The notes: generated by a model not told the origin, from the sequence alone. 64,000 bases of DNA from a virus (IMGVR_UViG_3300037193_003384:2145-66144); one strand, 5' to 3'; positions 16,185-61,151 are shown, counted from the stretch's first letter. Numbers and translations: made by a program.

Positions 16185-16362
16185 CGGGCTCCGGTTCGTC
16201 ACCGCCATCGTCGGCGGCAGCCACCTCGGCGCGCAGCACCAGCACATGTTGCGGTGCTCTGATCGCCAGCTTCACCGAGCTGCGATGGGTCGCGGTGACC
16301 ATGATCTCGATGCTGTCCCCGATCAGGATGCGCTGGCCCTTGCGGCGGGTGATGATCAGCAT
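16165..16362 (-). CDS. csrA: carbon storage regulator CsrA/RsmA family RNA-binding protein
   Basis: MLIITRRKGQRILIGDSIEIMV...VKLAIRAP..VLVLRAEV follows the CsrA consensus. Confidence 0.9.
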   Translation of the reverse strand: MLIITRRKGQRILIGDSIEIMVTATHRSSVKLAIRAPQHVLVLRAEVAAADDGGDEPEPDGGTPR

Positions 16363-17346
16363 CGCGGCGCATGCTCACACATCCGGTGGTGCTCACCCGG
16401 CTCGGGGTGGTCGGTCCAATACTGGCAGCCGCAGCACTCGGGATCGGGATGCAGCGCCAGCGCGTGGAAGCCGCTCTCCTTCGGCGGCTCGCTGGGCACG
16501 GCGCCCACGGCGTGGAGCTCAGCTTCGAGGTCCATCACGCGCTGCCGCCACGCCAGCAGCTGGTACCGCGATGAGGCGGGGAACGGTGGGTCGATGGGCT
16601 GCCGCGCGATCACCTCGATCTGCTCCACCTCGAGCTGGATCCGGATGGAGATGTCCTCGTCGGTGACGCCCTGCTCTTTCCATTCGTGGATCAGGCGCCG
16701 GCGCGCATCGATGTAGTCGGGCCACGCGGTCATGATAGGCTCGCTGCGCCCGGGGCGGGCTGCCCGTCGTCAGTGTCCAGCCTGCCGCCTGCCCCGGGCA
16801 TCTGTTGCGCGCGCAGGCGGTGTTCCCAGCGGCTCACGCAGGGGTCGCACCCCTGCCCGTCGCCGCTCAGAATCTCCATGTCCTCCAGGTCAAAGTAACG
16901 CTGGCAGAAGTCGCACCGCCACCAGGTGAGCTCACCGTCGTGATAGGTGTCCCCGTAGGCTTCCGAGCTCACCGCGCTGAGCCTGCCGCGGCAGTTGAAG
17001 CAGTTGCACGGGTACTCATTGAGGTGATCGATGCAGCCGCCGCAGCCCACCGCCGCGCACTCGGGATCGACCGTCGGTGCCCACTCACCCGCGGGGACCT
17101 CCGGACCCAGGTCCACGGTTACCCTCCCCCGAGCCGGCGCGCGGGTGGCGTGATGTCGCGCCGGTTGGTCATCAGCGCGGGTGGCGTGCCGCGCGGATAG
17201 AAGAGCCCCTGGTGCTCGATCCAGTTGCGGTGCCGCGTCGTGCGCTCCCACTCGCGCGTAAACGCCGTCTCGGTGAACTGCCCACGCCCATAGGGATTGA
17301 GCTCGATCACCCGCGCAGGCTGCTGCTGCGGATTCGCCTTCATCAT
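16356..17346 (-). other. three small hypothetical genes, two Cys-rich
   Basis: ORFs 16356-16733, 16730-17117 and 17119-17346 chained between sigma factor and csrA. Confidence 0.5.
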
Positions 17347-17945
17347 GCCGGCCCTCCTCGTCGTGACAGAGCATGCCGCGTCTCGCCCGGAACCACCAGG
17401 GGCGGCGCCTGCCCGGTGAGGTGGCTTCGCATGCCGATGAGTGAGCGCGACACTCGCTGGCTGATCCGCGCTTCGCTCACGCCCTCGTCCACACCGATGT
17501 CGCGCCACTTGCGCCCGCGCTGGTAGGCGGCCTCCATGATGCGCGCATCGCGCGGGCTGAGCGGCGCGCCCCACGCCTTCGCCGCATCGATCTGGCGGAT
17601 GGCCACGTCCTCCGGTGACTCGTCATCCGTGGCGAATTGGGCGGGGCTGCCGCCGTCGCTCACGTCCTCCATGTGCACCACGGTGGCGCGCGCCTGCCCG
17701 CCCCGGCGCCGGCTCGACCAGTCCTGCCGCCGGAGCTCATCGAGCACGGAGCCGCGCACGCGCGCCGCCAGGTACCATTCGAAGCCCGGGCCCTGCCCGC
17801 CCTCCGGGTGCCGCGTCAACGCGTCCACCAGCCCGAGCAGCGCCGCCTGCTCGAGGTCCTCCCGCAGCACGTTGCACGGCATCCGGCGCATAATCGCGCG
17901 GGCGATCTTCAGCGCCATGCCGTACTGCGCCTTCGTGATCTTCAC
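17343..17945 (-). CDS. RNA polymerase sigma factor, FliA/WhiG-like
   Basis: Region 2 EDLEQAALLGLVDA...FEWY...RVRGSVLDELRRQDW and region 4 DIGVDEGVSEARISQ. Confidence 0.85.
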   Translation of the reverse strand: MKITKAQYGMALKIARAIMRRMPCNVLREDLEQAALLGLVDALTRHPEGGQGPGFEWYLAARVRGSVLDELRRQDWSSRRRGGQARATVVHMEDVSDGGSPAQFATDDESPEDVAIRQIDAAKAWGAPLSPRDARIMEAAYQRGRKWRDIGVDEGVSEARISQRVSRSLIGMRSHLTGQAPPLVVPGETRHALSRRGGPA

Positions 17946-18890
17946 CGCTGCGCCTTCCCCTCGAGCCCGGTGCAGTGCGGGCAGTGCTCGGTCGCGTGCA
18001 CCCGGAAGCAGTTCGTGCAGACGACCGTGCGCGTTGCATCGTACAACGCCCGGGCCAGCGCGGCGATGAGAAGCTCAGCGCGGTCTAACCGCTCACGGAG
18101 GACGGCCTCCCGGAGCTCAACCGAACCGGACACCGTCGGTGCGCCGCGCGCGCAGCTGGGCTGCCTGCTCGAGCAGGCGCCGGGCGCGTTTGCGATAGCC
18201 CTCGGCGAGTTTGGGTTTGCCTTCGCTGGCGCAGCGATCGGCATCGGCCTGGCACTGGCGCGCCGTGGCTTCGAGCGATTCGACGGTGGCGGGTGGCGCG
18301 ACGATCAGCATCAGCTGGCCCTCGCACGCCGCAGCTCGGCAGCGCGATCACGCAGGCGCCCGGCGGCTTCCATCTTCAGATGCGCGTCGAGCTCTGCCTT
18401 CGTGCCGGGGATGGGCTTGCTGCGGATGAGCATGCGCGCTTCTTCCTCGAGCACGTTCGCGCGCGCTTCGAGCTGCACCGGATCATCCGCAGCGATCATA
18501 GGTTGAAGCCCACCCCGCCCGTCTTACTGCAGTCGATGGTGCCGCCTGCCCCGGTGTAAGTCACGCTGGATTCGCCCACGTGCACGCTGCCGCCAGCCTC
18601 CTGCAGCACGCGCTCGAACTCACGCGCCGCATCCTGAAGGCCCGCGCGCGCGCAGACATCACGCGCCTGCCGAACCTGCGCCGGCGTGAAGACGTAGACG
18701 TGCGGTTGCATCGCTGGCCTCGCGAGCGCTGCGCGCAGGTCATCGAGCGGGTCGCTGGTGTTCGTCCAGGTGAGCTGAGAAATGCGCAGGTGCAGCAGCC
18801 TGATCAGCTGCACGCGCGCCGCGCAGGTCTGCACGTGCAGCTGCAGCCGTTGACGCGCCCAGCGAATCCGTGCCCGCGACGTTGCGCCCA

Positions 18891-19070
18891 TCAGCTCACC
18901 CGAATGGTCGGGCCCCAGCCGCCCAGCGCAGCCAGCACCCAGAGCAGGAAGACCACGGCCACCACGATCTGCAGGATGGTGCGGATGCGCGGCTCCATGG
19001 GGATCATCCCCAGCACCCAGCAGATGACCGCCACCAGCAGCACCGCGACCAGCAACCCCACCAGCGACAT
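18891..19070 (-). CDS. small two-helix membrane protein
   Basis: MSLVGLLVAVLLVAVICWVLGMIPMEPRIRTILQIVVAVVFLLWVL, with TACCGT 6 nt before the ATG. Confidence 0.7.
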   Translation of the reverse strand: MSLVGLLVAVLLVAVICWVLGMIPMEPRIRTILQIVVAVVFLLWVLAALGGWGPTIRVS

Positions 19071-19124
19071 ACCGCTACGGTAGCATGGGGCTGGGCGCAA
19101 CGCGCGCGGCGCTATGCCCCTGGA

Positions 19125-19712
19125 TCAGTGCATCGATTCGGCATCGGGATCGGCGCCGTTGGTTTCGCCAGCCGCGAACTCACCCGCCAGCCGTCGCATC
19201 GCGCGCTTCGGCTTCGTGCCGTCATTCGCGAACGCCAGCTTCTCCTCCACCGACCAGCCCTCGAACGGATCGGTGTTCTCCTTGATCGCCAGCTTCTGAG
19301 CGGGCTCGACGCCCATGTAAAAGCCGAACGCGCGGGTGGCGTCCAGCGCGACGCGCAAACCCTGCTCGCTGTTCTTGGCCATGGCCTTCGCCCGGATGAC
19401 TTCGAACGTCTGCAGGATCTGCGCGAGCGCTTCCTTCTGCGCCTCCGGGTCCATGCGCAGCTGGCGGCGCAGCAGGCGCGATGCCTCCGCCGCAAATTTC
19501 CGGACGGTGTTCGGCGCGCAGTCCCACTGCTCAGCCAGCGCCCGATCGCTCACGCCGCTGAGCCACGCGCCACTCTGCATCTTCGCGGCGATCTCCTCGA
19601 TGCGCCGCTCCTTCTCGCTGAGCTCCGCCCAGTAGTGCGCGTTCGATCCCGGGCGCGGGCCGCGCTGCTTTGGCTTCTTCGGCTTCGGCAGGCGCTTCCG
19701 CGGTGAGCTCAC
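19125..19712 (-). CDS. putative terminase small subunit (HTH)
   Basis: HTH-like DRALAEQWDCAPNTVRK, helical core and acidic tail. Upstream of terL in the same operon. Confidence 0.5.
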   Translation of the reverse strand: MSSPRKRLPKPKKPKQRGPRPGSNAHYWAELSEKERRIEEIAAKMQSGAWLSGVSDRALAEQWDCAPNTVRKFAAEASRLLRRQLRMDPEAQKEALAQILQTFEVIRAKAMAKNSEQGLRVALDATRAFGFYMGVEPAQKLAIKENTDPFEGWSVEEKLAFANDGTKPKRAMRRLAGEFAAGETNGADPDAESMH

Positions 19713-19875
19713 GCAGCCACCTCGTCATCCTCGTCGCTGTTGTCAGCGCAGCCGAGCGCGCAGATATGCGCAGCCTCGTTCCCCTGCCCGTCGAATAGCG
19801 GTCGCAGCAGTGCGACCCGGCTGCACCAGAAGTTGTCGCATAGCCCGATCACGAGCGCGTGTTCACGGCTTGGCA

Positions 19876-21222
19876 TCACGCAGCCACCGCCATCGGGATG
19901 CGCTGCGGCTCCTCACCGGTGAGTTTGCGCCAGCGCTCCACGGTCACGTCGCAATAGGCGGGCTCCACATCGATGGCGAAGCAGCGGCGCCCCAGCTTCT
20001 GCGCGGCGATCAGCGTGGTGCCCGAGCCCACGAACGGATCGTACACGTCACCCTTGTGATTGCGGATCGGGCGGGCCATGCACTCGAGCGGCTTTTGCGA
20101 GCCGTGCGTGGTGTCCATGTCCTCGGTGCCCTTCTGGGTGAAGCCCACCTTCGACTGGATCGTCCAGAGCGTCGTCTGTTTGCGCCCGCCGATCCAGCCC
20201 GCGGTCTCCCCCTTGCGCACCACGTACCAGCAGGGCTCGTGCTGCCAATGGTAGTTGCCCCGGCTCATCACCAGCGCGGCCTTGCCCCAGATGATCTGCT
20301 GCCGCACGAGCAGCTTGGTGCGCGCCAGGTGCGCGGCCACCTCGGCGCCGTAGACGCCCGCGTGCCAGACGTATCCCACGGGCCCGTTGAACAGCGCGTA
20401 GGCTTCGGTCCAGTCGCGGCGGTTATCGTTGCGGATCGTGCCCGTGTGCTTCTGCTTCACGGGTGAGAACTCGTCGCGCCAGGTGCTGTCCAGGCTCACG
20501 CCGTAGGGCGGGTCCGTCACCATCAGCCGGGGCTTCGCGCCGTCCAGCACCAGCTGCACGACGTCAGCGCGCGTGCAGTCCCCGCACACCAGCCGGTGCT
20601 GCCCCAGGATCCAGAGATCGCCGGGCTGCGTGACGGGCACCGCCGGCGGCTCCGGCACATCGTCATCGTCCATCTGCTGGTTGCCGCTCAGCGCCTGCAG
20701 CTCGGCCGCGCTGAAGCCGGCGATGTCCAGGTCGTTGGCGGTGAGCTCACCCGCGCCGATGATGCGCCCGAGCTCATCCGGGTCCCAGTCGCTGATCTCA
20801 CCCAGCTTGTTGTCGGCGAGCGCCAGTGCGTGCGCGGCCGCGGGCTCCATCCGCCGCACGCGCACGGGCACCTGCGTGAGCCGCAGCTGCTGCGCCGCCT
20901 GCCAGGCGGTGTGCCCGATGATCAGCTCGCCCTCGCACCGGGGCCAGACGTTGACCACCAGCGGGCGGCCCCACCCCCATTTGCGAATCGAACGCGCCAC
21001 GGGCGCCACGGCCTTGGCGTTCTTACGCGGGTTCTGCACCCACGGCTTCACGCGTTCGATCGGCCACCAGGCGAAGTCGGGCAGCGTAGGATCGAGGCTG
21101 GGCTCGAGCCCATCCACCGTGCCCAGCACCACCGATTCAGGCTCGGACGGCGGTGAGCTCGAGCGCGCAGTGCGCCGCGAACGCGATCCCCCATCTGCCG
21201 CTCCCACCTTGCGCGCAGCCAT
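19876..21222 (-). CDS. ParB-like N-terminal domain fused to N6/N4 DNA methyltransferase
   Basis: NPRKN...SIRKWGW...IIGH...LADNK, then HRLVCGD, TDPPY, HGSQKP and YDPFVGSGTT. Confidence 0.92.
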   Translation of the reverse strand: MAARKVGAADGGSRSRRTARSSSPPSEPESVVLGTVDGLEPSLDPTLPDFAWWPIERVKPWVQNPRKNAKAVAPVARSIRKWGWGRPLVVNVWPRCEGELIIGHTAWQAAQQLRLTQVPVRVRRMEPAAAHALALADNKLGEISDWDPDELGRIIGAGELTANDLDIAGFSAAELQALSGNQQMDDDDVPEPPAVPVTQPGDLWILGQHRLVCGDCTRADVVQLVLDGAKPRLMVTDPPYGVSLDSTWRDEFSPVKQKHTGTIRNDNRRDWTEAYALFNGPVGYVWHAGVYGAEVAAHLARTKLLVRQQIIWGKAALVMSRGNYHWQHEPCWYVVRKGETAGWIGGRKQTTLWTIQSKVGFTQKGTEDMDTTHGSQKPLECMARPIRNHKGDVYDPFVGSGTTLIAAQKLGRRCFAIDVEPAYCDVTVERWRKLTGEEPQRIPMAVAA

Positions 21223-21374
21223 GTACCTGCCGTTATGGCATGATCAATTGCGCCTGGACAGCCGCGCGTGCGCGCGTGAGGGCCGCAGCAGGTGAGCGCC
21301 CGCTACCCCTCACCCCCCGAAACCGATCCAGGTCCGCCTGCACGCAGGTCCCCCCGTCCCCCCCCGGACGTGGA

Positions 21375-21671
21375 TCACGCTGCGCTGGACAGCATCTGCC
21401 GGATGATGTGTGGGTGCTTCGCCGCGATCCGCAGCAGGGCCAGGCCGGGGCCTTCGGGCATGCGCCGGTCCTGTTCCCAGTTCCGCAGCGTGTGCACGCT
21501 GATGCCCAGCGCCTCGGCGAACTGCGCCTGGGTGAGGTCCACGAAGCGCCGCAGGGCGGCCACGTCGCCCGGCTCGAGCTTGCCGGCGATGATGCGTTTG
21601 CGCTGGCTCATCCGCAGCGCCCGGGCGAAGTCGGCTGCGGTCCATTCGGGGGGATCATGGGGGTCGTTCAT
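21375..21671 (-). CDS. antitoxin, XRE-type helix-turn-helix
   Basis: LTQAQFAEALGISVHTLRNWEQDRRMP, with a BrnA-like N-terminus PEWTAADFARA. Overlaps the toxin stop. Confidence 0.8.
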   Translation of the reverse strand: MNDPHDPPEWTAADFARALRMSQRKRIIAGKLEPGDVAALRRFVDLTQAQFAEALGISVHTLRNWEQDRRMPEGPGLALLRIAAKHPHIIRQMLSSAA

Positions 21672-21958
21672 GGGGGGGTTCCTTTCAGGTGAGCGCGGTA
21701 GGCGCGCCGTTGTGCGGGGCTGGCGGGCCACGCGCTGATGATGTGCACCACGTCCTCAGCCGGCTCGGTCCACACCACCAGCAGCACGCGGCGGCTGCTG
21801 GCGCCGATCGCGTGGAAGCGGTATTCGCCTTCACTGTGCGCGTGGTCGGGCAGGATGAGCGGGTCGCCAGCGAAAACCTCGCTGGCTTCTTCGAACGTGA
21901 CGCCCTGGTGCCGTGCCGGGTTGGCGGCTGCTTTTGGCGGGTCCCAGGTGATGCGCAC
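21668..21958 (-). CDS. brnT: BrnT family toxin
   Basis: WDPPKAAAN..HQGVTFEEASEVF...HSEGEYRF.AIG...VLLVVWT...IISA. Confidence 0.85.
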   Translation of the reverse strand: MRITWDPPKAAANPARHQGVTFEEASEVFAGDPLILPDHAHSEGEYRFHAIGASSRRVLLVVWTEPAEDVVHIISAWPASPAQRRAYRAHLKGTPP

Positions 21959-22165
21959 AATAGACTGTGCGCCGTGGGCTTAGTAGAGTCAAGCCGCGTG
22001 CCGGCGTGGTGAGGCGCCCATTTCGGCAGGGAAATCGACCACGGGAGCACCGGCATGGTACGCAATTCTGCAGCGTGGCGGGTGCGTCCACGGCGGACCC
22101 GAGCCAGTCTTATAGGGTGGTCACGCCGCAGCCAAACCTGGCGGGCCACGGAAAGAGAACGCCCC

Positions 22166-22546
22166 ATGTCAAAGCCCCTCACGATCCACGCTGACGTCAC
22201 CACGCACCACGGCCCGCTGGGCTGGGTGGCGGTCGCTAAGCTCACCACCCCGGCGGGCAGCACCCGCACCACGCAGCGCCAGCTGAGCGCCGCTATGTAC
22301 CGCGTGGCGGCCGAGCTGGAGACCGCCCTGGCTGACGGCGCCGCGCCCGATGGCGACTGCCTGGGCTACACGGTGGACGTGCGCGGCCCGCAGCTGGAGA
22401 TGGGGCTCAGCGCTACCGTGCGCCTGGTGCTGACCGATGGCGACATGCCGGTGGACGTGGCGTACGCCGAGGAGATGGTGATCGATGCCTGCGTGGCCTG
22501 CGGGCTCGAGCCCGAGCACGCGGGCAGCGGCCCGCTGGATCGCTGA
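22166..22546 (+). CDS. hypothetical protein (paralog of 24479-24817)
   Basis: Follows a variant of the shared leader. Has AAMYRVAAEL, GDCLGYTVDV and LEMG. Confidence 0.7.
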   Translation: MSKPLTIHADVTTHHGPLGWVAVAKLTTPAGSTRTTQRQLSAAMYRVAAELETALADGAAPDGDCLGYTVDVRGPQLEMGLSATVRLVLTDGDMPVDVAYAEEMVIDACVACGLEPEHAGSGPLDR

Positions 22547-22627
22547 CCCGCCCATACGGCGCAGCGCCTGGCAACGGGCGCCGCGCCGCAGGGTGCGCCA
22601 GCCAAACCAGCACCGAGGAGAAAGCCA

Positions 22628-23308
22628 GTGACGAAATCAGAAGCCGCCAGCCTGCAGATCGGTGACATCGTGATCGTGATCCGCAGCGGCAAAATCTACC
22701 GCGTGGATCACCCCGCCTACAGCGACGGCAGCATCCAATCCACGCAGCTGCGGGACGGCAAACCCTACGGCCCGATCCGCTACCTCAAGCCCGCCGCCGT
22801 GCAGCGGCTCAGCACCGCCGATGACCGGCACCCGGCGAGCCGCGCGCTCACCGCCGCCCTTCAGCCGCCAGCGCAGGATGCGTGGAAGGCGATCCCCGCG
22901 CCGCAGCCCGCGCGCCGTGAGCGCACGCCGCGCAACGACGGCGATGAGGGGGACCGCCTGGCGCGCAAAGTCGTGCGCTACGCTGAGCGCTGGCAGCGCA
23001 AATTCCCCTGCCCCGAAGCCGCCAGCGATCCCGAGCTGGCCGCCATTTGGCGGGCGGTGGAGCAGCTGCTGGCGCACGATAGCGGCCGCACCCCGGAGCC
23101 GCGTGCGGTGACCCTGCAGCGGGTGCAGTCCGCCATCCCGCTGCCGCCGATGGCCCTCACCGATCACGGGGACCGGATCACCACCACCGCCGATGCGCTC
23201 ACGGATCGGCAGGCGGACGACGCCACGGCGGCGCTGCAGCGGCGCGGCTTCCACGTGGAGCGCCTGCGGGATCCGGATGGGCGCTGGGGTCTCACCGTCT
23301 GGATCTGA
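22628..23308 (+). CDS. hypothetical protein
   Basis: GTG after the GCCAAACC...GAGGAGAAAGCC leader. Confidence 0.7.
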   Translation: MTKSEAASLQIGDIVIVIRSGKIYRVDHPAYSDGSIQSTQLRDGKPYGPIRYLKPAAVQRLSTADDRHPASRALTAALQPPAQDAWKAIPAPQPARRERTPRNDGDEGDRLARKVVRYAERWQRKFPCPEAASDPELAAIWRAVEQLLAHDSGRTPEPRAVTLQRVQSAIPLPPMALTDHGDRITTTADALTDRQADDATAALQRRGFHVERLRDPDGRWGLTVWI

Positions 23309-23314
23309 GCCGCC

Positions 23315-23429
23315 CCGGTTCGATGGAGCAAAATGCGCGGCGTGTACCAGCTTCACGCCGCGCGCCGAGGCAGTCTGAAGGGACGGGCGCTGCACGCCAA
23401 ACCGCGGCGCCCGAGGAGAAAGCCCCCCA
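23315..23429 (+). repeat. repeated upstream/leader module, long copy
   Basis: Shares CCGGTTCGATGGAGC, a 25-bp exact CCGCGCGCCGAGGCAGTCTGAAGGG, CGCCAAACC and AGGAGAAAGCCCC with 24365-24478. Confidence 0.9.
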
Positions 23430-24308
23430 TTGATCCCCGCCGTCACCACCCCGCCCGTCCACCGCTTCGAAGCCGCCGGCCTCGGCAAGGCCCCGTTCGA
23501 AGTCGAGTCATTCCAGATCTGCAAATACCAGGCGTGCCAGGGCGCGCCGATCCAGCCCGGCGCCAGCTGCGACTTCTGCGGCACCGGGATCATGCTGGTG
23601 TATGTGATCCGCAGCGCTGACAACCGGCGCTTCAAGGTGGGTTGCGACTGCGTGGAGAAGACCGGCGATGCCGGGCTCATCAACGCGGTCCGGCGCCAGC
23701 GCGCGGCACACACCAAGGAGCTCACGGTGGCCCGCCGGGAGCGCGCGCGCGCAGCGAAGCGCCGCACCCGTGAGCAGGCAGCCCGCGCGCGGCGCGCACG
23801 CACCCGCCGCGATGCCTGCACGTTCGCACGCGAGCACGGCCTGATCGATGCCTTCCGCGTGGCCGTGCGCGGCTCGAAGCGCGCGCTGGCGCGTGACCTG
23901 CTGCAGCGCCTGCTGGCGATGGGCACGCTGAGCCCGGCGCAGGTGCGGCTGGTGCAGACGCTGGGCATGCGCCTGCGGCCTGCGCCCGCTGGACGCGTGA
24001 CCTTCGCCGCCGTGATCGATTCGGTGAGCGCCCGCGATAGCGTGCACGGCACGCAGTACAAGATGACCGTCACCGCCGATGACGGCTTCCGCGCGTGGAT
24101 GACGGCCCCCCGGACGCTCTGGCTCGAGCTGCTACGGAACACCACCAGCCTGGCCGACTTCCGCGGGCTGCGGGTGCAGGTCACCGCCACGCTGACACCC
24201 AGCGCTGACGACCCGGGTTTCGCCTTCGGCAAGCGCCCCACCGTGCGGGCGCTCGAGGGCGCGCCCCAGCCCGCCGCTGGCAGCCTGCGCCCGCCGGCAG
24301 CGGGCTGA
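23430..24308 (+). CDS. hypothetical Zn-binding phage protein
   Basis: AGLGKAPF...CDFCGTGI...SADNRRFKVGCDCV, after the shared leader. Confidence 0.75.
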   Translation: MIPAVTTPPVHRFEAAGLGKAPFEVESFQICKYQACQGAPIQPGASCDFCGTGIMLVYVIRSADNRRFKVGCDCVEKTGDAGLINAVRRQRAAHTKELTVARRERARAAKRRTREQAARARRARTRRDACTFAREHGLIDAFRVAVRGSKRALARDLLQRLLAMGTLSPAQVRLVQTLGMRLRPAPAGRVTFAAVIDSVSARDSVHGTQYKMTVTADDGFRAWMTAPRTLWLELLRNTTSLADFRGLRVQVTATLTPSADDPGFAFGKRPTVRALEGAPQPAAGSLRPPAAG

Positions 24309-24364
24309 GCACCCCGCCGGCAGCCGGGCCCTGCAGCACCCCGCCAGGGCCCGGCGCAGGCGTG

Positions 24365-24478
24365 CCGGTTCGATGGAGCGAAATCGACCTGGTGTGCCGG
24401 CTTTGCTCCGCGCGCCGAGGCAGTCTGAAGGGTGGCCGGCGAACGCCAAACCCGGCGGCCACGAAGGAGAAAGCCCCA
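24365..24478 (+). repeat. repeated upstream/leader module, long copy
   Basis: See 23315-23429. Also shares GAAATCGACC and CAGTCT..AGGG with 22030-22165. Confidence 0.9.
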
Positions 24479-24817
24479 ATGCCCCGTACCCGTACCCCTG
24501 CCCCCCCCGCCACCCGCGCCGTGGTGTACACCCGCGCCGGCTACCACGTTCGCGCCTGCATCGTGATCGAGCGCATCGGCACCCGCGACCAGCAGCCCGC
24601 CGACAAGGCTCACCGAGCCGCGGCCGCCTACCGCCTCGCAGCCCAGATCGCGCTGATGAACGTGGACGTGGGCGCCTGCATCGCGATCGACGTGGATGCC
24701 CACGAGGGCCACCTCACACTGGAGATGGGTGAGCACACCGACACCTCGGTCGTGCAGTGCCTGATGGGTGACGCGCTGACCGCCCTGCGGCTGCCCTTCG
24801 AACACCGCGCCGGCTGA
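24479..24817 (+). CDS. hypothetical protein (paralog of 22166-22546)
   Basis: AAAYRLAAQI, GACIAIDVD and LEMG, after the shared leader. Confidence 0.7.
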   Translation: MPRTRTPAPPATRAVVYTRAGYHVRACIVIERIGTRDQQPADKAHRAAAAYRLAAQIALMNVDVGACIAIDVDAHEGHLTLEMGEHTDTSVVQCLMGDALTALRLPFEHRAG

Positions 24818-24932
24818 GCCGCGCTGCCCTGCCGCCGCGTACCTGGGTCCCTGGGTACGCAGCGCCGGGGTGCGCAGCACCAGCAACCCAAACCGCCCGC
24901 ACGCCAAACCGCGGGCACCAGGAGAAAGCCCC

Positions 24933-25499
24933 ATGATCCAGTCCACGATCCGCCCCACCCGCTCGTCCGGTTACCGCCCCTGCGCCTGCCGCGACTGCTT
25001 CGAGATCGCCATCGGTGAGCCCGGCGCCATGTGCCACGCCTGCGCCGATGCCGGCTGCACCGGCGATGGCGAGTGCCAGGCGCCCGGCGCCTACGGCGGC
25101 GATGAGGAGCCCGAGTCCCAGCCCGATCCCGAACCGAGCGAAGCGCTCACGGTGCCGCCCACGGTCACCACCGCCGAGCAGATCCGTGAGGCGTGCCTGC
25201 AGCAGGGCTTCTTCTTCGTGAGCACCGGCACCTATCAGCCGGGCATCGTGCTGCCGCGCCTGCTGGCAGCGCTCGAGGTGCTGGCCCCGCACGTGCACGC
25301 GCAATACGTCGGCCCCACCGGGATCATGGCGCGCGTGCCTGCCGAAGCGATGCAGGATCTCAATCACTACTATTGGGACGGCGCCGAGGGTGAGCGCCTG
25401 GTCGCTTACCTCATGATGGCCCTGGATGCGGCGGCACCGCCGGGGTGCATGTTCTCGGCCGAGGGCGCCTTCCACAACCTGGGCTTCTTCCGCAAGTGA
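24933..25499 (+). CDS. hypothetical protein, Cys-rich N-terminus
   Basis: CACRDC...CHACADAGC, after the shared leader. Confidence 0.7.
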   Translation: MIQSTIRPTRSSGYRPCACRDCFEIAIGEPGAMCHACADAGCTGDGECQAPGAYGGDEEPESQPDPEPSEALTVPPTVTTAEQIREACLQQGFFFVSTGTYQPGIVLPRLLAALEVLAPHVHAQYVGPTGIMARVPAEAMQDLNHYYWDGAEGERLVAYLMMALDAAAPPGCMFSAEGAFHNLGFFRK

Positions 25500-25711
25500 T
25501 CGCCACCCTGCCGCTGGGCACCGAGCTGGTGCTGACCTGCGCCGACTGCGGTGAGCCCTCCACCGCCAGCCTGCACGGCACCAACGGCTGGGTGCTGCGC
25601 CGCGTGCCCGGGCGCGGCCACCTGCAGGACGTCTGCCCCTGCTGCGCGCCACAGCGGCACGCGGTGCGGATGCCGAATACTGGTCCCCGCCAACCGGGAT
25701 CGCGTACATAG
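25496..25711 (+). CDS. small Zn-finger-like protein
   Basis: GTGA overlap with the previous gene. CADC...CPCC. Confidence 0.5.
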   Translation: MIATLPLGTELVLTCADCGEPSTASLHGTNGWVLRRVPGRGHLQDVCPCCAPQRHAVRMPNTGPRQPGSRT

Positions 25712-25716
25712 ATCAC

Positions 25717-25795
25717 GGGCGCCCAGCGTGGGGAGGCTTTCTCCGCTGGGCTGCCCCGATGGGCTGGGTCGGTTTGGCGATTGACCCAGCCCATC
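25717..25795 (+). ncRNA. candidate two-hairpin antisense RNA against the repeated leaders
   Basis: Stem 25721-28/25744-51 with GGCTTTCTCC in and beside its loop. Stem 25758-70/25783-95 with loop GGTTTGGCG. Both are reverse complements of the leader boxes, but the strand is not proven. Confidence 0.6.
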
Positions 25796-25801
25796 ACCTA
25801 A

Positions 25802-26230
25802 TCAGCGGCCGCTGAAGGCACCGCCGCGCGCGCGCTCGACGAGCGCATCGCGGACCTTGCCCGCGCCCTCGTCTTCGAACTGCAGCGCCTGCAGGTCAGC
25901 CGCGAGCTGCTCGGCGGGCACGGTGCGGTAGTAGCCTGCCTGCGCGTTCGCCTTCAGCGAATCGAGCTGGCTCACCTGCGGCAGCGCGCCGAGCTCAGCC
26001 AGCAGGTCCCCGCCGCCCCGGTTGCCTGCGGCAGCGCTGATGCGCGCCTGCGCCATCGGATCGGGTTTGCCCTCGTCAGCCTTCCGCTGCGCGTCGGCTT
26101 CGACCTGCGGCAGCGCGGCTGCAGGCGCCGGCACCTCATCGTCAGGCGCTGGCGTGGCGCGGGCCTCGGCCTGCGCATCGCGGGATGTGGTGGTGGTTTC
26201 GTGTTCGGACTGTGGGTGTTTGCGAGTCAT
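25802..26230 (-). CDS. hypothetical protein
   Basis: Last gene of the leftward replication operon. Confidence 0.6.
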   Translation of the reverse strand: MTRKHPQSEHETTTTSRDAQAEARATPAPDDEVPAPAAALPQVEADAQRKADEGKPDPMAQARISAAAGNRGGGDLLAELGALPQVSQLDSLKANAQAGYYRTVPAEQLAADLQALQFEDEGAGKVRDALVERARGGAFSGR

Positions 26231-26261
26231 GCGGTGATCGTCCACCGCGAACCGAAGCCCG

Positions 26262-26831
26262 TCAATGGATCAGCGAGACGTGCGCCTGCAGCGTGGCAAG
26301 CTGCCGCCGGTGCCGCACGCTGGTACCGAGCGCGATGGCCAGCGCATCCGCTGCGTGCTCACTCAAACGCTCCACCCCGAAGATGGCGCGCACGCGCGCC
26401 TTCACTGCGCCCTTCTTCGCGCGCCCGCCGCCCTTCCCCAGCACCGCCACCTTCACGCTGCTCGGCGCCAGGCAGTAGCAGGGCACGTCGAAGCAGCGCG
26501 CGGCGCAGCGGATGATGCCCGCCACCTCGTGCACGCGGCTGCTGGAGAAGTTGCTATCGGCATCGGCACCGCCCGCCTCCTGCAGCTGCCGGCGGATGCG
26601 GTGCTTGCCCGCCTCCACGATGGCCTGGTTCTCGTAGCCCAGGGCGTCGACCTCGTAGTGCTCGAGCAGGTCCAGCAGGTGCTCGGCGATCGCGTCCAGC
26701 CGCGTGGCATCTTCGTCCTTCGCCAGCGTGGCGAAGGTGGAGTGATGCAGCACGCGCGTGCTCGAGGGCTGCAGCTCGATCACGCCCACCCCCATGAACG
26801 CGTACCCGGGATCGACGCCGACGATGATCAT
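26262..26831 (-). CDS. ruvC: Holliday junction resolvase RuvC
   Basis: IVGVDPG, LGYE, APSSVKVAVLG.G.AKK and HAADALAIAL. Confidence 0.92.
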   Translation of the reverse strand: MIIVGVDPGYAFMGVGVIELQPSSTRVLHHSTFATLAKDEDATRLDAIAEHLLDLLEHYEVDALGYENQAIVEAGKHRIRRQLQEAGGADADSNFSSSRVHEVAGIIRCAARCFDVPCYCLAPSSVKVAVLGKGGGRAKKGAVKARVRAIFGVERLSEHAADALAIALGTSVRHRRQLATLQAHVSLIH

Positions 26832-27259
26832 GGCGGCAGCAGAGCCCGCACCTCGCCGGTGGTGTACACCTCCGCCAGGCGCGGGGCGAGCTCAGCGCCG
26901 ACGGTGGATCCGTTCGGCAGCACGACGTGCGCCAGGAACTCGGTCTCCGCGTTCGTCATGCCCGCGGCGATGTACTCGAGCTTTCCCTTCACCAGCAGCA
27001 GCAGCGCGCGCCACTGCTCGCGCTCCACCTGCTCGGCGTTGCGGTTGCGTCCATCCTGCCGCGATAGCAGCGGGATGCGAAACTGACGGCCGTCCATCGT
27101 GAAGCCCACGAAGCCCGAGCGCCGCTGATGATCGATGCCGGACAGGATCTGCCCGGCGCCATGCTTCGTCAGCAGCGCCTCGATCTCCCCGCGTGTCTTC
27201 GAGACGGGTACCTCGGTGCCCTCGGCGTAGCGACGCCGTGGCCTGCGGCTGATGCTCAC
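26828..27259 (-). CDS. hypothetical phage protein
   Basis: YAEGTEVPVSKTRGEIEALL...WRALLLLVKGKLE...EFLAHVVLPNG. Overlaps ruvC. Confidence 0.7.
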   Translation of the reverse strand: MSISRRPRRRYAEGTEVPVSKTRGEIEALLTKHGAGQILSGIDHQRRSGFVGFTMDGRQFRIPLLSRQDGRNRNAEQVEREQWRALLLLVKGKLEYIAAGMTNAETEFLAHVVLPNGSTVGAELAPRLAEVYTTGEVRALLPP

Positions 27260-27267
27260 CGCACCCG

Positions 27268-27633
27268 TTACGCGTCGGCGCCAGCAGCCTCGGCAGCAGC
27301 AGCACCGTTTGCACGGCGCCCGCGACGGCGGCGGCCACGCGGCGCTTCCTCTGCCGCCGGCTCATCCTCATCGTTCGCCGCGCCACCACCGGGCAGCAGC
27401 GACTGCTGCGCGGGCACCCACGCCATCCGCGTGTTCACCTCTTCGGTGAGCTGCCGGATACCGTCACGCAGCTGGATCAGCTCCTCGTTCCACTTGCGAT
27501 TGTGCGTGCGCTTCTTGTCGATCAGGTCGAACCGCGCCTGCTCATCTTCCGCCAGCTTCGCAGACCGCTGCTCCCACTCCTCTTGAGTGAGTTCGACCTG
27601 CACCATCCCCGTCCGATCCTGCTGCTCGCCCAT
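27268..27633 (-). CDS. hypothetical coiled-coil protein
   Basis: GGAGG RBS before the ATG. Confidence 0.65.
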   Translation of the reverse strand: MGEQQDRTGMVQVELTQEEWEQRSAKLAEDEQARFDLIDKKRTHNRKWNEELIQLRDGIRQLTEEVNTRMAWVPAQQSLLPGGGAANDEDEPAAEEAPRGRRRRGRRANGAAAAEAAGADA

Positions 27634-27717
27634 CGTGCGCCTCCGTTGGTGAAGCCCAGAGGGTACGGGATCGGAACGCACGGGCGCAACGCTCACGCGC
27701 GCCAGGCCTGCACGTTG

Positions 27718-27736
27718 GGTGATCCATATGCAGGTT
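27718..27736 (-). promoter_or_regulatory. second copy of the AACCTGYATATGGATCACC motif
   Basis: Intergenic, same orientation relative to downstream genes as the 5281 copy. Confidence 0.55.
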
Positions 27737-27780
27737 CCGATCGAGGATCATGGATCGCGTTTGCTGGCGCGTGGCGGGCG

Positions 27781-29184
27781 CTAGGACAGCTCGCGGCTCT
27801 CGGGGCCGTCGTAGTCGGTGGGGCCGTAGTCGAAGCCGCCCTGCGCGCCCTCGGTGAAGCGCACGCACCACGGCTCCCACGTCACGCGCACGCGCCCGGT
27901 CCCCGCGTTCCGTCCCTTCGCCAGGATCAGCGCCGCCTCCCCGCGCTCATCGCCCTCGGCCTCCTCGCGGTGCACGAACAGGACCTTGTCCGCATCCTGC
28001 TCGAGCGCGCCCGATCCCCGCAGGTCCATCAACGTGGGCTCACCCGATGCGCGATCGCTCGGGCGCTTCAGCTGCGATAGCGCCACCACCGTGATGCCCA
28101 GCTCGCCAGCGAGGATCTTCAGCGCTCGGCTGATCCGCTCGAGCTGATCGTTGCGGTTGCCTTCGGTGGAGTCGTCGGCCATCAACTGCACATAGTCCAC
28201 CACCAGCAGCCCGGGCCGCGCGTGCGGATGGCGCTGGCGCAGGGCCGCGAAGTGTTTGCGCGCGCGTGACCGCAGCCGCGCCGGCGTGAGCGTGCTCCCG
28301 TCGTCGAGATACATCGGGTAGCGCCCGATCTGCGCGGCCGTCGCGATGGCGCGCTCGTAGTGCTCCATCGAGAGCCGGCGCGTGAGCAGCGGCTTGTAAG
28401 GCACGCCGCTCGACCACGAGATGAGCCGCTCACCCAGCTCCTTCCGCTTCATCTCGAGCGAGAAGAAACACGCGCTCCGTGCGCCCGTGGCGGCCACCGC
28501 CGCGGCCATCCCCAGCGCCAGCGCCGTCTTGCCCTTGCCCGGGCGCGCCGCGATGTACCAGAGCTCCCCGGGGCAGAAGCCGAGGCTCAGCTCGTTGAGA
28601 TCCACGAAGCCCGTAGTGAGCCCGCGCGGCTCGCTCGGGCGGCTGGGATCCAGATCCACTGCGGCGCTGCTCATCACGTCGCAAAGCGGACTGCCCGTGT
28701 CGACGTCGGTCCTGCCGCTGGCGTTGATCGCGAACACCACCGATTCGCATCGCTCGATGAAGCCCTGCACGTTCGCGCGGGTCTCGACGAAGTTCGCCTG
28801 CGTGCTGAGCTCGGCGAGTGCTTTGCCCATGCGCCGCAGCCGCGCCAGGCGGTGCACGATCCGCGCGTGCTCGAGCACGTTCGCCACCGACGGCGTCGCG
28901 TCCACGATCTGCGAGATGTAGGGCGCGCCACCGATCTGCTGCAGCCGTGCCGTGTCCCGCAGGTGCGCCGCCAGCGTGACCGCATCGCACTCGCGTCCAG
29001 CGTCGGTGAGCTCGAGTATCCCCTCGTACATGGTGCGGTTCGCGCCGCTGTAGAAGTCGCTGGGCTCGAGCAGGTCGCGCACCTCATCGCGCGCCGTCAC
29101 GGACAGCATGATCGATGAGAGCACCGCTGCCTCGGCGTCGAGCTCAGCGTGCGGCTGCGGCTGCTGCCGTCGCTCAGTTGCCAA
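27781..29184 (-). CDS. dnaB: replicative DNA helicase DnaB
   Basis: AEAAVLSSI, AARPGKGKT, FFSLEM, VVDYVQLM, ALSQL and DLRGSGALEQDAD. Confidence 0.95.
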   Translation of the reverse strand: MATERRQQPQPHAELDAEAAVLSSIMLSVTARDEVRDLLEPSDFYSGANRTMYEGILELTDAGRECDAVTLAAHLRDTARLQQIGGAPYISQIVDATPSVANVLEHARIVHRLARLRRMGKALAELSTQANFVETRANVQGFIERCESVVFAINASGRTDVDTGSPLCDVMSSAAVDLDPSRPSEPRGLTTGFVDLNELSLGFCPGELWYIAARPGKGKTALALGMAAAVAATGARSACFFSLEMKRKELGERLISWSSGVPYKPLLTRRLSMEHYERAIATAAQIGRYPMYLDDGSTLTPARLRSRARKHFAALRQRHPHARPGLLVVDYVQLMADDSTEGNRNDQLERISRALKILAGELGITVVALSQLKRPSDRASGEPTLMDLRGSGALEQDADKVLFVHREEAEGDERGEAALILAKGRNAGTGRVRVTWEPWCVRFTEGAQGGFDYGPTDYDGPESRELS

Positions 29185-59642: not shown

Positions 59643-61151
59643 TCACGCGGCCTTGGACGCGTACATGCCGAACTTCGCCAGCGGCTTGATGATCTTCGTC
59701 GGCACGAAGATGTTGACCTGGCTCTCGTCGAGCTCATCGATCGTCACCTGCAGCTCCCCAGCCTGCACCGACTGATCCAGCGCGGGCCCCTGCACCACGC
59801 CCGCGCGCACCTGCCCGCGCAGGCGGCTCACGATGAAGGCCTCGACGTCGCGCCGCTCCACCACGCCCTCCGGCAGCGGATCGCCACCCGCAGGCAGGTC
59901 TGGCGAGATGCTGCTGTTCTTGAACTCCTGGGGTACCGCCGTACGTAGGTCCCCAAACACGGAGTACATCGCGTCGGTGTCGCTCAGATGATAAGCGCGG
60001 TAGTCGGGCGCGCCGCCGCTGGTGGAGTGCGTGGTGATGGGCGCCACCAGGTAAGGCACGCCCGTGAGGGAATCGATGTCGAGCGGCGTGACGCCGTTGC
60101 TGAGCAGGTCCTCGATCTCGGTGGCGCTCAGCTTGTTGGTGACCACGTCGCGGGGCCCGTAGAGCTCGTGCGTGTTGCCGATGCGGTTGTAGTTGGCGCG
60201 CACCGAAGCCCAGCGCAGCGCGTCCCCAGCCTCGGCTGCTGCCAGCTCGCACGGCAGGTCATCCCAGCTTCGCCCGAGGACGTATTGCATCGCCTCGTTG
60301 TTGCGATCGATGGCGCCCGCCTTCGCGTTGCTGGTGGTGCCGGTGACGCCCACCACGCCGACCTGCAGCAGCGCGGCAGAGCCCGTCTCGAACGTGTTGA
60401 TGTGGTTCGCGAGCCGCTCGGCGTTGCTGCTCGAGCTCGTGTCCGCGGCATCGGCGTTCGAGATGCAGGGGATGATCCGCCGGTATTCGCGCGTCGAGAC
60501 CGTGGTCAGCGCGGTCGCGAAGGTGGGCTCCGTGGTGCCGCCCGTGCAGTTCGCCGGGTTGACCGTGACGGCGATCCCGCCGCCGCCCTCGATGATGCCC
60601 GCCCAGAGCCGGACGTCGTTTCCCCAGGGCCCCGCCACCTTTGCGGTGAACAGGATGGAGCCGCCCGTCGCGTCGCTCGCGGTGACGAACAGATCGGCCG
60701 CCTGCTGGTTGATGGTGGCCACGGCGCGCGTGACGAACGTCGTCGCGGCCTCGCCATTGAGCCAGGCCACGTCGATCTGCCGCCCATGGATGCGGAAGCG
60801 GATCGTGCTGTTCTCGGTGGCGGGCCCGGTGAAGGTCTGCGTGCCCGTGGCTGCAGCGCCAGCGCTGGCCGTGGGCGCGATCACGTCCAGGCTGCCGAGC
60901 GGGTAGCGCTGGAAGAAGCGCTTGGACGCCAGGTGCCCAGGCGTGCCTGCACCGAGCGCCGTGGCGACGTCATCGGGGCCATAGCACTGGCGCACCTCCG
61001 TGTTCGCGGTGATGTTTCCAGCGCTCGACTTCGGCGCCATGATCAGCGCCCGCAGTGCAGCGAGCCCTGGATTCTGGGCGGGCCCGAGCAGGTTGATCGT
61101 GAGATAGAACCCGGGTGTCTTGACGTTACTCGCGACCGCCTTCGCCGGCAT
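59643..61151 (-). CDS. contractile tail sheath protein (Mu gpL-like)
   Basis: NVKTPGFY, TAKVAGPWGN, IEDLLSNGVTPL and PITT. Confidence 0.9.
   Translation of the reverse strand: MPAKAVASNVKTPGFYLTINLLGPAQNPGLAALRALIMAPKSSAGNITANTEVRQCYGPDDVATALGAGTPGHLASKRFFQRYPLGSLDVIAPTASAGAAATGTQTFTGPATENSTIRFRIHGRQIDVAWLNGEAATTFVTRAVATINQQAADLFVTASDATGGSILFTAKVAGPWGNDVRLWAGIIEGGGGIAVTVNPANCTGGTTEPTFATALTTVSTREYRRIIPCISNADAADTSSSSNAERLANHINTFETGSAALLQVGVVGVTGTTSNAKAGAIDRNNEAMQYVLGRSWDDLPCELAAAEAGDALRWASVRANYNRIGNTHELYGPRDVVTNKLSATEIEDLLSNGVTPLDIDSLTGVPYLVAPITTHSTSGGAPDYRAYHLSDTDAMYSVFGDLRTAVPQEFKNSSISPDLPAGGDPLPEGVVERRDVEAFIVSRLRGQVRAGVVQGPALDQSVQAGELQVTIDELDESQVNIFVPTKIIKPLAKFGMYASKAA

Follow-up and report, generated by a model that had tools for sequence, protein, structure and literature searches.

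The DNA examined here, IMGVR_UViG_3300037193_003384:2145-66144 (hereafter the window), comprises 64,000 bases of a complete virus record that is 66,144 bases long and carries direct terminal repeats, and has a G+C content of approximately 69%. Positions 22166-25711 form a + strand island of six genes (gpA to gpF, identified as reading frames with high G+C at third codon positions (GC3)), five of which have a 5′ leader with two short sequence boxes in common; directly after the last stop codon lies an element of two hairpins, the loops of which carry the reverse complements of these boxes. An earlier note on this DNA had proposed a multi-target antisense RNA here, and the coordinates that it gave for both boxes and for the hairpins all proved correct, with the copies exclusive to these places in the 66,144-bp genome. 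The genes of the cluster are:

22166-22546, + strand: gpA
22628-23308, + strand: gpB
23430-24308, + strand: gpC, with a phrog_4265 domain
24479-24817, + strand: gpD
24933-25499, + strand: gpE, with a Cys-rich N-terminal domain
25496-25711, + strand: gpF, a small CxxC...CxxC protein; no leader, coupled to gpE by a GTGA overlap

Box 1 (GCCAAACC) occurs on the + strand at 22131, 22601, 23396, 24445 and 24903 (a form prefixed by C starts at 23395, 24444 and 24902) and once on the − strand, at 25771-25778; these six window copies compare with 1.54 expected, and none of 100 shuffles reached six. Box 2 (GGAGAAAGCC) lies on the + strand at 22617, 23415, 24466 and 24921 and on the − strand at 25735-25744, giving five exact window copies against 0.05 expected (0 of 100 shuffles reached five). 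Neither box was found in the 2,144 bases of the genome beyond the window, and genome-wide the copies are those in the leaders plus one reverse complement of each, the latter 27 nucleotides (nt) apart in two hairpin loops. The start-to-start spacing from box 1 to box 2 is 16-21 nt in the leaders and 34 nt in the inverted copy. Box 2 contains GGAG and has a fixed place, 1-6 nt before the start codons, and in all five leaders of the window box 1 stands inside a hairpin loop:

22117-22165, + strand: gpA leader; hairpin 22117-22149 with loop CAGCCAAACC and box 1 at 22131-22138; variant box 2 GGAAAGAGAACGCCCC at 22150-22165; ATG at 22166
22592-22627, + strand: gpB leader; hairpin GGUGC/GCACC at 22592-22614 with loop GCCAGCCAAACCA; box 2 at 22617-22626; GTG at 22628
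23384-23429, + strand: gpC leader; 10-bp hairpin 23384-23413 (one U·G pair) with loop ACGCCAAACC; box 2 at 23415-23424, then CCCC; TTG at 23430
24432-24478, + strand: gpD leader; hairpin 24432-24462 with loop GAACGCCAAACCCG; box 2 at 24466-24475; ATG at 24479
24895-24932, + strand: gpE leader; 6-bp hairpin 24895-24916 with loop ACGCCAAACC; box 2 at 24921-24930; ATG at 24933

The element at the other end of the cluster consists of:

25716-25757, + strand: hairpin 1; outer pairs GGGC/GCCC, stem 25721-28/25744-51, loop with anti-box 2 (GGCTTTCTCC) at 25735-25744 and GGGG before it
25758-25800, + strand: hairpin 2; perfect 13-bp stem 25758-70/25783-95, 12-nt loop GGTTTGGCGATT, anti-box 1 at 25771-25779, tail CACCTA at 25795-25800

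The 90 nt after the gpF stop codon fold at −62.1 kcal/mol (z = −7.62), a value that none of 200 shuffles equalled, and the complementarity to box 2 continues, through the GGGG in loop 1, into the C-run that follows the box. A scan of 19000-29000 with the 4,227 families of Rfam 15 (cmscan, E ≤ 10) gave nothing at 25716-25800, and scans of the corresponding elements of four related phages (L075, L077, L078 and L081; E ≤ 1) gave nothing either; the element is thus not a member of c4, the family to which the earlier note had looked.

Related phages with the same leaders and element

Relatives were obtained from a leader-pattern scan of IMG/VR (L016), from gpE (L036, identical to L051) and from a scan of metagenomes (L075, L077, L078, L079, L080 and L081); the L080 contig ends before the element, and the L081 contig is without leaders. 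Their gpE and gpF proteins are 35-55% identical to those of the window, a distance at which unconstrained intergenic sequence should therefore be scrambled. Nonetheless, a two-hairpin element lies directly 3′ of the gpF stop codon in all eight genomes that have the region on the contig (window included), and a covariance model of hairpin 2 (R1) found exactly one copy in each of these eight (E ≤ 2.5 × 10−10 in 634,495 bases). The model also matches the leader hairpins weakly on the opposite strand, which is direct evidence that the two sets of loops mirror each other.

The leader hairpins recur as well. Across eight genomes, a stem of at least 5 bp encloses box 1 in 21 of 23 leaders, with a mean stem of 7.57 bp; when the flanks were shuffled (300 shuffles), the mean stem was 2.93 bp, and the leaders that reached 5 bp averaged 4.6 and never exceeded 9 out of 23. 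The sequences of these stems vary from leader to leader. Box 1 in a leader hairpin loop, facing a hairpin loop with its complement, is kissing-loop geometry.

Searches further afield delimit the group. The leader-pattern scan returned 35 stretches, about the total expected by chance on a rough estimate, among them L016, the relative, and L021, which on reading had no leader-like context. Two further scans, with patterns for the 3′ element, returned 7 and 8 stretches, all of them unrelated sequence without the hairpin (the minimum gap of the second pattern was too large to recover L036). There was no blastn match of 21900-26300 to 50,697 phage records, and a scan of GTDB genomes yielded only two distant relatives, which share the N-terminal domain of gpE. 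A protein search with gpE gave 46 proteins at E ≤ 1 × 10−10, approximately 34 of them full length. L037-L050 and most of L082-L128 have only the Cys-rich N-terminal domain in common with the window; in L037-L050 the sequence preceding that domain has no such leader, and in the 72 such loci searched with model R1 no hairpin-2-like element was found.

Some parts of the element are conserved outside its complementarity to the leaders. The tail CACCTA (CACCUA in RNA) follows hairpin 2 directly in seven of the eight elements and reads CACTTA in L016, and an A-rich stretch, UAUGAAAGCAA, lies just before hairpin 1 in four of the eight. The conservation of the tail and of the AUU in loop 2 goes beyond that accounted for by pairing with box 1, the A-rich stretch is likewise outside the leader pairing, and the single-stranded tail and the A-rich stretch may delimit the RNA or serve as a protein site. 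Other accounts of the conserved region were considered and rejected: a conserved small open reading frame across the hairpins (the frames of the window, L016 and L036 give unrelated peptides) and a site-specific inversion or shufflon (no recombinase was found among the scanned flanking genes, and the complementarity is confined to the loops).

Covariation of stems, loops and boxes

The structure of hairpin 2 is under selection. In its stem, 96.6% of cells are paired and 7 of the 13 pairs change on both sides, none of 500 shuffles reached the observed covariation score, and sliding the partner strand by 1-3 columns as a control lowered pairing to 34-48%. The loop of this hairpin, GGTTTGGCGATT, is identical in five of the eight elements, where it is carried on different stems. 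The stems of hairpin 1 differ in every lineage and always pair (CCCAGCG, CUCGCG, GGGCGC, UCCGCG, CAUCCG and GCCGCCG).

The loop of hairpin 1 varies together with the leaders. Box 2 keeps GGAGA and then differs between genomes (…AAAGCC, …AGCTC, …AGCCTC, …AAACCCC and …AGCAC), while being near-uniform within each genome:

Window: box 2 GGAGAAAGCC, hairpin-1 loop GGCTTTCTCC
L016: box 2 GGAGAAAGCC, hairpin-1 loop GGCTTTCC
L036: box 2 GGAGAAGCTC, hairpin-1 loop GAGCTTCTCC
L075 and L078: box 2 GGAGAAGCCTC, hairpin-1 loop GAGGCTTCTCC
L077: box 2 GGAGAAAACCCC, hairpin-1 loop GGGGTTTTCTCC
L079: box 2 GGAGAAGCA(C), hairpin-1 loop GTGCTTCTCC
L080: box 2 GGAGACCCCAC, element beyond the contig end

We compared each loop with its own and with all other leaders in a matrix of longest exact complements (7 elements × 8 leader sets). 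The own genome scored highest in every row, except that the window loop scored slightly higher on the leaders of L016, with which the window has box 2 in common; for box 2 and loop 1, only 2 of the 720 permutations of six genomes reached the diagonal sum (L078 was dropped as a near-duplicate of L075). Box 1 shows the same tendency where it changes: it reads ACCGCCAA in L036 and L079, the loops of which (TTGGCGGT and CTTGGCGG) contain TTGGCGG, and TCGCCAAA in L016, where the loop is TTTGGCGA. Loops and leader boxes therefore covary between related phages, and such natural covariation is the same kind of evidence as compensatory mutations. Covariation in relatives had been named beforehand as a check on the proposal, and in this comparison the hairpin-1 loop follows its own box 2; what stands is a 3′-end RNA of approximately 85 nt, complementary to the leaders at two points and in antiparallel order, with loops, boxes and stems that covary.

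These patterns bear on the simplest account of the hairpins, that they are a bidirectional terminator between convergent genes and match the boxes by chance. The convergent position in the window and the strong, G+C-rich stems would suit a terminator, but a 9-mer and a 10-mer that are otherwise unique to the leaders both fall in loops (the 10-mer being expected 0.05 times per window), the loops are conserved and covary with the boxes while the stems drift, and the position is not convergent in most relatives. A terminator scan of 21300-26400 gave no site at 25716-25800, where the U run of an intrinsic terminator is absent (the tail is CACCUAAUCAG, and CACCUAUUU in some relatives). We regard a chance match in a terminator as hardly credible; hairpin 2 may nevertheless have a terminator role besides pairing, or be a weak terminator in a host of high G+C.

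The structured RNA is the sense transcript

The + strand folds better than the − strand in seven of the eight elements, by 3.6 to 17.7 kcal/mol, with a tie in L016, and across the eight elements there are 33 G·U pairs on the + strand against 10 on the − strand. Because some of these pairs close loops, a strand-symmetric count was made inside the stems, in which internal G·T versus A·C stood at 4:0 in the hairpin 2 stems (7 distinct sequences) and 4:1 in the leader stems. Genomic context agrees: a further + strand gene follows the element in L016, L036, L075, L077 and L079 (four of these five genes share the ribosome-site region GGACCGAGACCAA(C)ATG), so that in those five the element is internal to a + strand operon and not at a convergent junction; a convergent gene directly after the element occurs only in the window and L078. 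The structured RNA is the sense (+) transcript, and it displays the anti-boxes.

As an alternative, the earlier note had raised the possibility that the functional transcript is the minus strand, with both boxes displayed in loops as a protein decoy. On that strand the element would be a sixth copy of the leader motif and could be a decoy for a leader-binding RNA as well as for a protein. Readthrough is conceivable in the window and L078, where the element lies between convergent genes, and on the minus strand the 12-nt loop is fully open. Beyond the poorer folding of that strand, the bias in G·U pairs and the position inside a + strand operon in five of eight genomes, however, the minus-strand box 2 has no start codon after it at a leader-like spacing, and the inverted copy keeps only the complementary core (...GCCAAGA in L036 and ...GCCAAAGG in L016, versus GCCAAACC in the leaders). 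Given sense-strand structure and operon context, we set the minus-strand decoy aside as very unlikely.

Predicted pairing with the leaders

Because cofolding cannot model kissing loops, we used duplex energies together with opening energies. Opening costs 0-2.1 kcal/mol for the box 1 loops of the leaders and 4.4 kcal/mol for loop 2, and the box 1 kiss comes to a net −7.9 to −9.9 kcal/mol. The contact at box 2 would contribute a further net −3.9 to −5.4 kcal/mol, and improves where the GGGG of the loop meets a C-run (the best raw duplex, −28.5 kcal/mol, is that of gpC).

Taken with the comparative evidence, these values make it probable that two-point pairing between the leaders and the 3′ end of the cluster transcript blocks ribosome binding. 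In the mechanism that we propose, the last 85 nt of the six-gene + transcript (25716-25800) would form a two-hairpin RNA that pairs with the cluster's own 5′ leaders. The loop of hairpin 2, GGUUUGGCG, would first kiss the leader hairpin loop, CGCCAAACC; the loop of hairpin 1, GGGG-A-GGCUUUCUCC, would then pair with GGAGAAAGCC(CCCC), that is, with the Shine-Dalgarno sequence and the bases up to the start codon. Ribosome binding would be blocked on gpB, gpC, gpD and gpE and more weakly on gpA, and gpF would follow through translational coupling. As the second duplex would cover the stretch from Shine-Dalgarno sequence to start codon, exclusion of the ribosome is expected, as described in accounts of icaR (PMC3868564) and of OxyS-fhlA (PMC2946933). 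The RNA may accumulate in either of two forms: a 3′ untranslated region (3′ UTR) that acts in cis, or a small RNA released by processing that acts in trans. Because it would be transcribed as the last part of the operon that it targets, the circuit could be negative feedback on, or a shut-off of, an early cluster, and because the box sequence differs between related phages, it would be private to each phage, in the manner of c4-type heteroimmunity.

At the level of sequence, structure and evolution this antisense reading is strongly supported, and from it we infer probable repression and a possible role as feedback, as a timer or in immunity. If the reading is true, the L080 lineage (box 2 GGAGACCCCAC) is expected to carry GTGGGGTCTCC in its hairpin-1 loop. 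Three stranded RNA runs under the same species label gave 0 reads on 21900-25900, a result without bearing on expression, and a wastewater run (labelled RNA, probably DNA) gave four short contigs of a relative, none of them over the element.

Upstream modules and alternative readings of the boxes

Two kinds of conserved module precede the leaders. One is promoter-like:

23307-23383, + strand: repeated upstream module, GTGTRCC.GCTT...16 nt...TCTGAAG; also at 24367-24431 and, more loosely, at 22020-22116

These modules end just before the leader hairpins, and similar ones occur in L016 (10830-10880 and 12620-12680) and L051 (3660-3730 and 5290-5350); their common pattern is GGCGATCAAAATC...GTGTGCCGGCTT...A/T-rich hexamer. 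Their conservation makes them look like promoters with an operator; promoters of the sigma-70 consensus were rejected, a scan having found no such site in the upstream modules of the window. A candidate regulator is the divergent gene for an XRE-type helix-turn-helix (HTH) protein that adjoins the cluster on its left (21375-21731, − strand; HTH_31, E = 1.5 × 10−7), and the earlier remark that the genome has no visible CI repressor needs qualifying in this respect. Only some leaders follow a promoter-like module; others follow a conserved inter-gene module without the promoter-like part. This second module consists of a stop codon, CCCGCCC, a hairpin and AGGGTGCGCCAGC, directly upstream of the box 1 hairpin, and was observed at 22547-22600 in the window, approximately 5890-5960 in L051, 2860-2930 in L075, 420-490 in L077 and 1620-1690 in L080. 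Between units, it may serve for processing or for termination of the transcript.

Several observations weigh against pairing and repression as proposed. Only six independent genomes carry both leaders and element, L016 loop 1 is complementary over just 7-8 nt, and the permutation test for box 1 is weak (58 of 720) because box 1 hardly varies. Two of the 23 leaders are without a good hairpin (both in L079, at 4088 and 5709), and box 2 of the gpA leader in the window is degenerate and forms only a weak duplex with loop 1 (−15.1 kcal/mol). Hairpin 1 partly masks anti-box 2, which costs 9.0 kcal/mol to open, the minimum-energy fold of the + strand closes much of loop 2 by G·U pairs, and at 69% G+C duplex energies alone are unspecific, unrelated windows reaching −25.2 kcal/mol with loop 1 and −18.4 kcal/mol with loop 2. 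There is no U-rich terminator after hairpin 2. Finally, a co-evolving protein that binds a double-stranded DNA site would also make the inverted copy covary.

This last point opens an alternative in which a phage regulator (for example, the XRE-type neighbour or the phage sigma factor) binds the boxes as double-stranded DNA and the copy at the end is simply an inverted site, covarying because all sites follow the same protein and orientation is irrelevant on DNA. The two boxes are inverted together, which is what a complete bipartite DNA site would show, candidate regulators are at hand in the adjacent HTH gene and the phage-encoded sigma factor, and covariation within genomes alone cannot separate recognition of RNA from that of DNA. 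Yet the spacing of the boxes varies, both among the leaders and between them and the inverted copy, box 1 sits in hairpin loops, and the stems covary and have their G·U pairs on one strand only, which argues for selection on RNA. The fixed place of box 2 beside the start codons, with its GGAG, and the presence of boxes in leaders that have no promoter-like module are further points against DNA sites, and we consider this alternative improbable.

A different possibility grants the pairing and questions its effect. The 3′ element could circularise or shield its own or sister mRNAs (for example, from 5′-end-dependent RNases) or create a processing site that would part the units from one another, so that stability or stoichiometry is adjusted and translation is not repressed. 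The structural and covariation evidence for antisense pairing serves this possibility equally; the box 1 kiss, moreover, is the more favourable and more accessible contact and lies off the ribosome site, and box 1 hairpins appear at the extreme 5′ end of units with their own promoter-like module. Against it, loop 1 reaches over the Shine-Dalgarno sequence as far as the start codon, the covarying bases lie exactly beside GGAG, and a duplex at that place should keep the 30S subunit off, in line with the published descriptions of icaR (PMC3868564) and OxyS-fhlA (PMC2946933). We therefore give an effect on stability or processing in place of repression a small chance of being correct.

Relation to known systems

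The known cases of antisense control over early phage genes are few, and each has a single target (c4, sar and P4 CI); here, one RNA would address every transcription unit of a cluster through a two-part tag in common. The c4 RNA is encoded upstream of its target, in the same operon (immI), and is released by RNase P processing. The present element, unlike c4, lies downstream of all its targets, has no Rfam match, would have five targets (three to five in relatives) and not one, and meets in one of its contacts an mRNA partner that is itself a hairpin loop. Like P1, this genome has a plasmid-type ParA gene.

Parallels with c4 are close in other respects. According to a review (PMC12197685, citing Citron & Schuster 1990), the c4 antisense RNA of P1 and P7 (RF01695) confers heteroimmunity through private loop and box specificity; it is a structured phage RNA with loops that pair with short leader boxes, one of them at the ribosome binding site, as is found here. 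In the review's account, c4 pairing blocks early or anti-repressor functions, and loops and boxes differ between related phages, as they do in the present group.

Three further systems share parts of the arrangement. In icaR of Staphylococcus aureus, a 3′-UTR motif is described as pairing with the Shine-Dalgarno sequence of the same mRNA, hindering the initiation complex and creating an RNase III substrate (PMC3868564). An anti-Shine-Dalgarno sequence likewise lies 3′ of the gpE-gpF unit here, with the boxes in the gpE leader (24895-24932), presumably on a single transcript; icaR, as presented there, is one bacterial gene with one contact, whereas here there are two contacts, sister leaders that would be reached in trans or on a polycistronic RNA, and phage-wide covariation. 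For OxyS and fhlA of Escherichia coli, two loop-loop contacts are described, one of which sequesters the ribosome binding site and which together form a stable complex (PMC2946933, citing Argaman & Altuvia 2000). The resemblance lies in a two-hairpin RNA with two short contacts to the mRNA, one over the ribosome site; OxyS, in that description, differs in being a host stress RNA with its own promoter, a second site in the coding region and unrelated target genes. The P4 CI RNA is reported to be processed from the transcript of its operon and to pair with two short complementary sequences, keeping the operon off (PMC4825925); according to that source it differs in acting by premature transcription termination, and its targets flank the RNA, with no leader tag on multiple genes.

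Keyword searches of the open-access literature yielded no account of a phage RNA whose sequence mirrors a tag common to several gene leaders. Tags as such are described in cluster K mycobacteriophages, where an identical extended ribosome-site motif, the start-associated sequence (SAS), stands 3-9 nt before the start of some non-structural genes, often after an inverted repeat and a promoter; the role of SAS and of the extended SAS (ESAS) is stated to be unknown in papers of 2011, 2024 and 2025, and the passages of these papers that treat the motifs propose no antisense RNA (PMC3203893, PMC11373665 and PMC12699233). In comparison with the phage Anaya, the present system resembles SAS/ESAS in its layout: some of the genes share an extended ribosome-site tag, an inverted repeat precedes it, and one copy alone has the opposite orientation. 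It differs in that the 13-bp SAS motif, GGGATAGGAGCCC, does not occur here, GGAGAAAGCC sharing only its GGAG core, and in belonging to an unrelated phage group.

At ≤2 mismatches, the Anaya genome (JF704106) has 16 SAS copies on the + strand; a single − strand copy falls within the 385 nt of non-coding sequence that separate gp96 from gp97 (L144 34800-34960, approximately 59,800-59,960 of the record, in a rightward operon). As + strand RNA, this inverted copy forms a 6-bp stem with a 10-nt loop, CCUCCUAUCC, which mirrors the SAS core, within a longer helix (z = −3.99), and the region is conserved in 138 records. The Anaya-type loop is kept in all four sampled Anayavirus genomes and has drifted in Ekdilam, Amgine and Keshu. 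A possible reading of the hairpin is an anti-SAS RNA. The parallel is suggestive for K1 only and is without covariation; it is not general in cluster K, because in Amgine the loop has drifted while SAS is kept, with 13 exact copies.

It is conceivable, if on balance doubtful, that unrelated phage groups run private translational address systems, of which the present element and SAS of K1 would be examples: a ribosome-site tag on a subset of genes, one hairpin RNA whose mirror loop switches that subset, and joint drift of the two as a lineage code, amounting to RNA-based heteroimmunity. If the antisense reading of the present cluster holds, it would provide a simple, portable rule for finding co-regulated phage gene sets together with their RNA, show how related phages avoid cross-talk between circuits, offer a testable explanation for start-associated sequence motifs (an open question since 2011), and make tag/anti-tag pairs available as ready-made orthogonal translational switches.

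Neighbouring genes and minor features

The window encodes a Mu-type portal, DnaB, RuvC, a YqaJ-type recombinase, ParA and a sigma factor. By GC3 frame analysis, the cluster is flanked on both sides by minus-strand genes; to its left lie a ParB-methylase gene and the XRE-type gene already described, and to its right a gene for 147 amino acids (25802-26245) and RuvC. A minus-strand gene starting at 25709 was considered and rejected, the GC3 signal there belonging to the + strand frames.

Also encoded are a CsrA homologue (16216-16362, − strand; 63.7 bits against a cut-off of 27) and a protein of the sigma-70 family that has regions 2 and 4 (17343-18074, − strand), and no link of either to the leader boxes was found. 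A CsrA-binding leader or CsrB-type decoy was rejected as an identity for the motif: the leader loops are without GGA, for which reason the phage CsrA is not linked to them, and loop 1 has GGA in the window but not in L016, L036 or L075.

Domain searches and alignments assigned no known function to any of the six proteins gpA to gpF. The N-terminal part of gpE (24966-25080) has a motif, SGYxxCACRDCFEIAIG...CHxC, that is common to many otherwise unrelated phage contigs and also occurs on a Streptomyces contig and a Myxococcales contig, and thus appears as a widespread small Cys-rich domain. In a wastewater contig of related sequence, the position corresponding to 23007 is joined to that of 24324, and 144 other letters stand where the window has 1,316 bases, so that the gpC cassette is replaced; this fits a cassette-like make-up of the cluster, the gene content of which also varies among L016, L036, L075 and L079. 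An imperfect palindrome, GTACCTGGGTCCCTGGGTAC, lies at 24836-24861, in the gap before the gpE leader.

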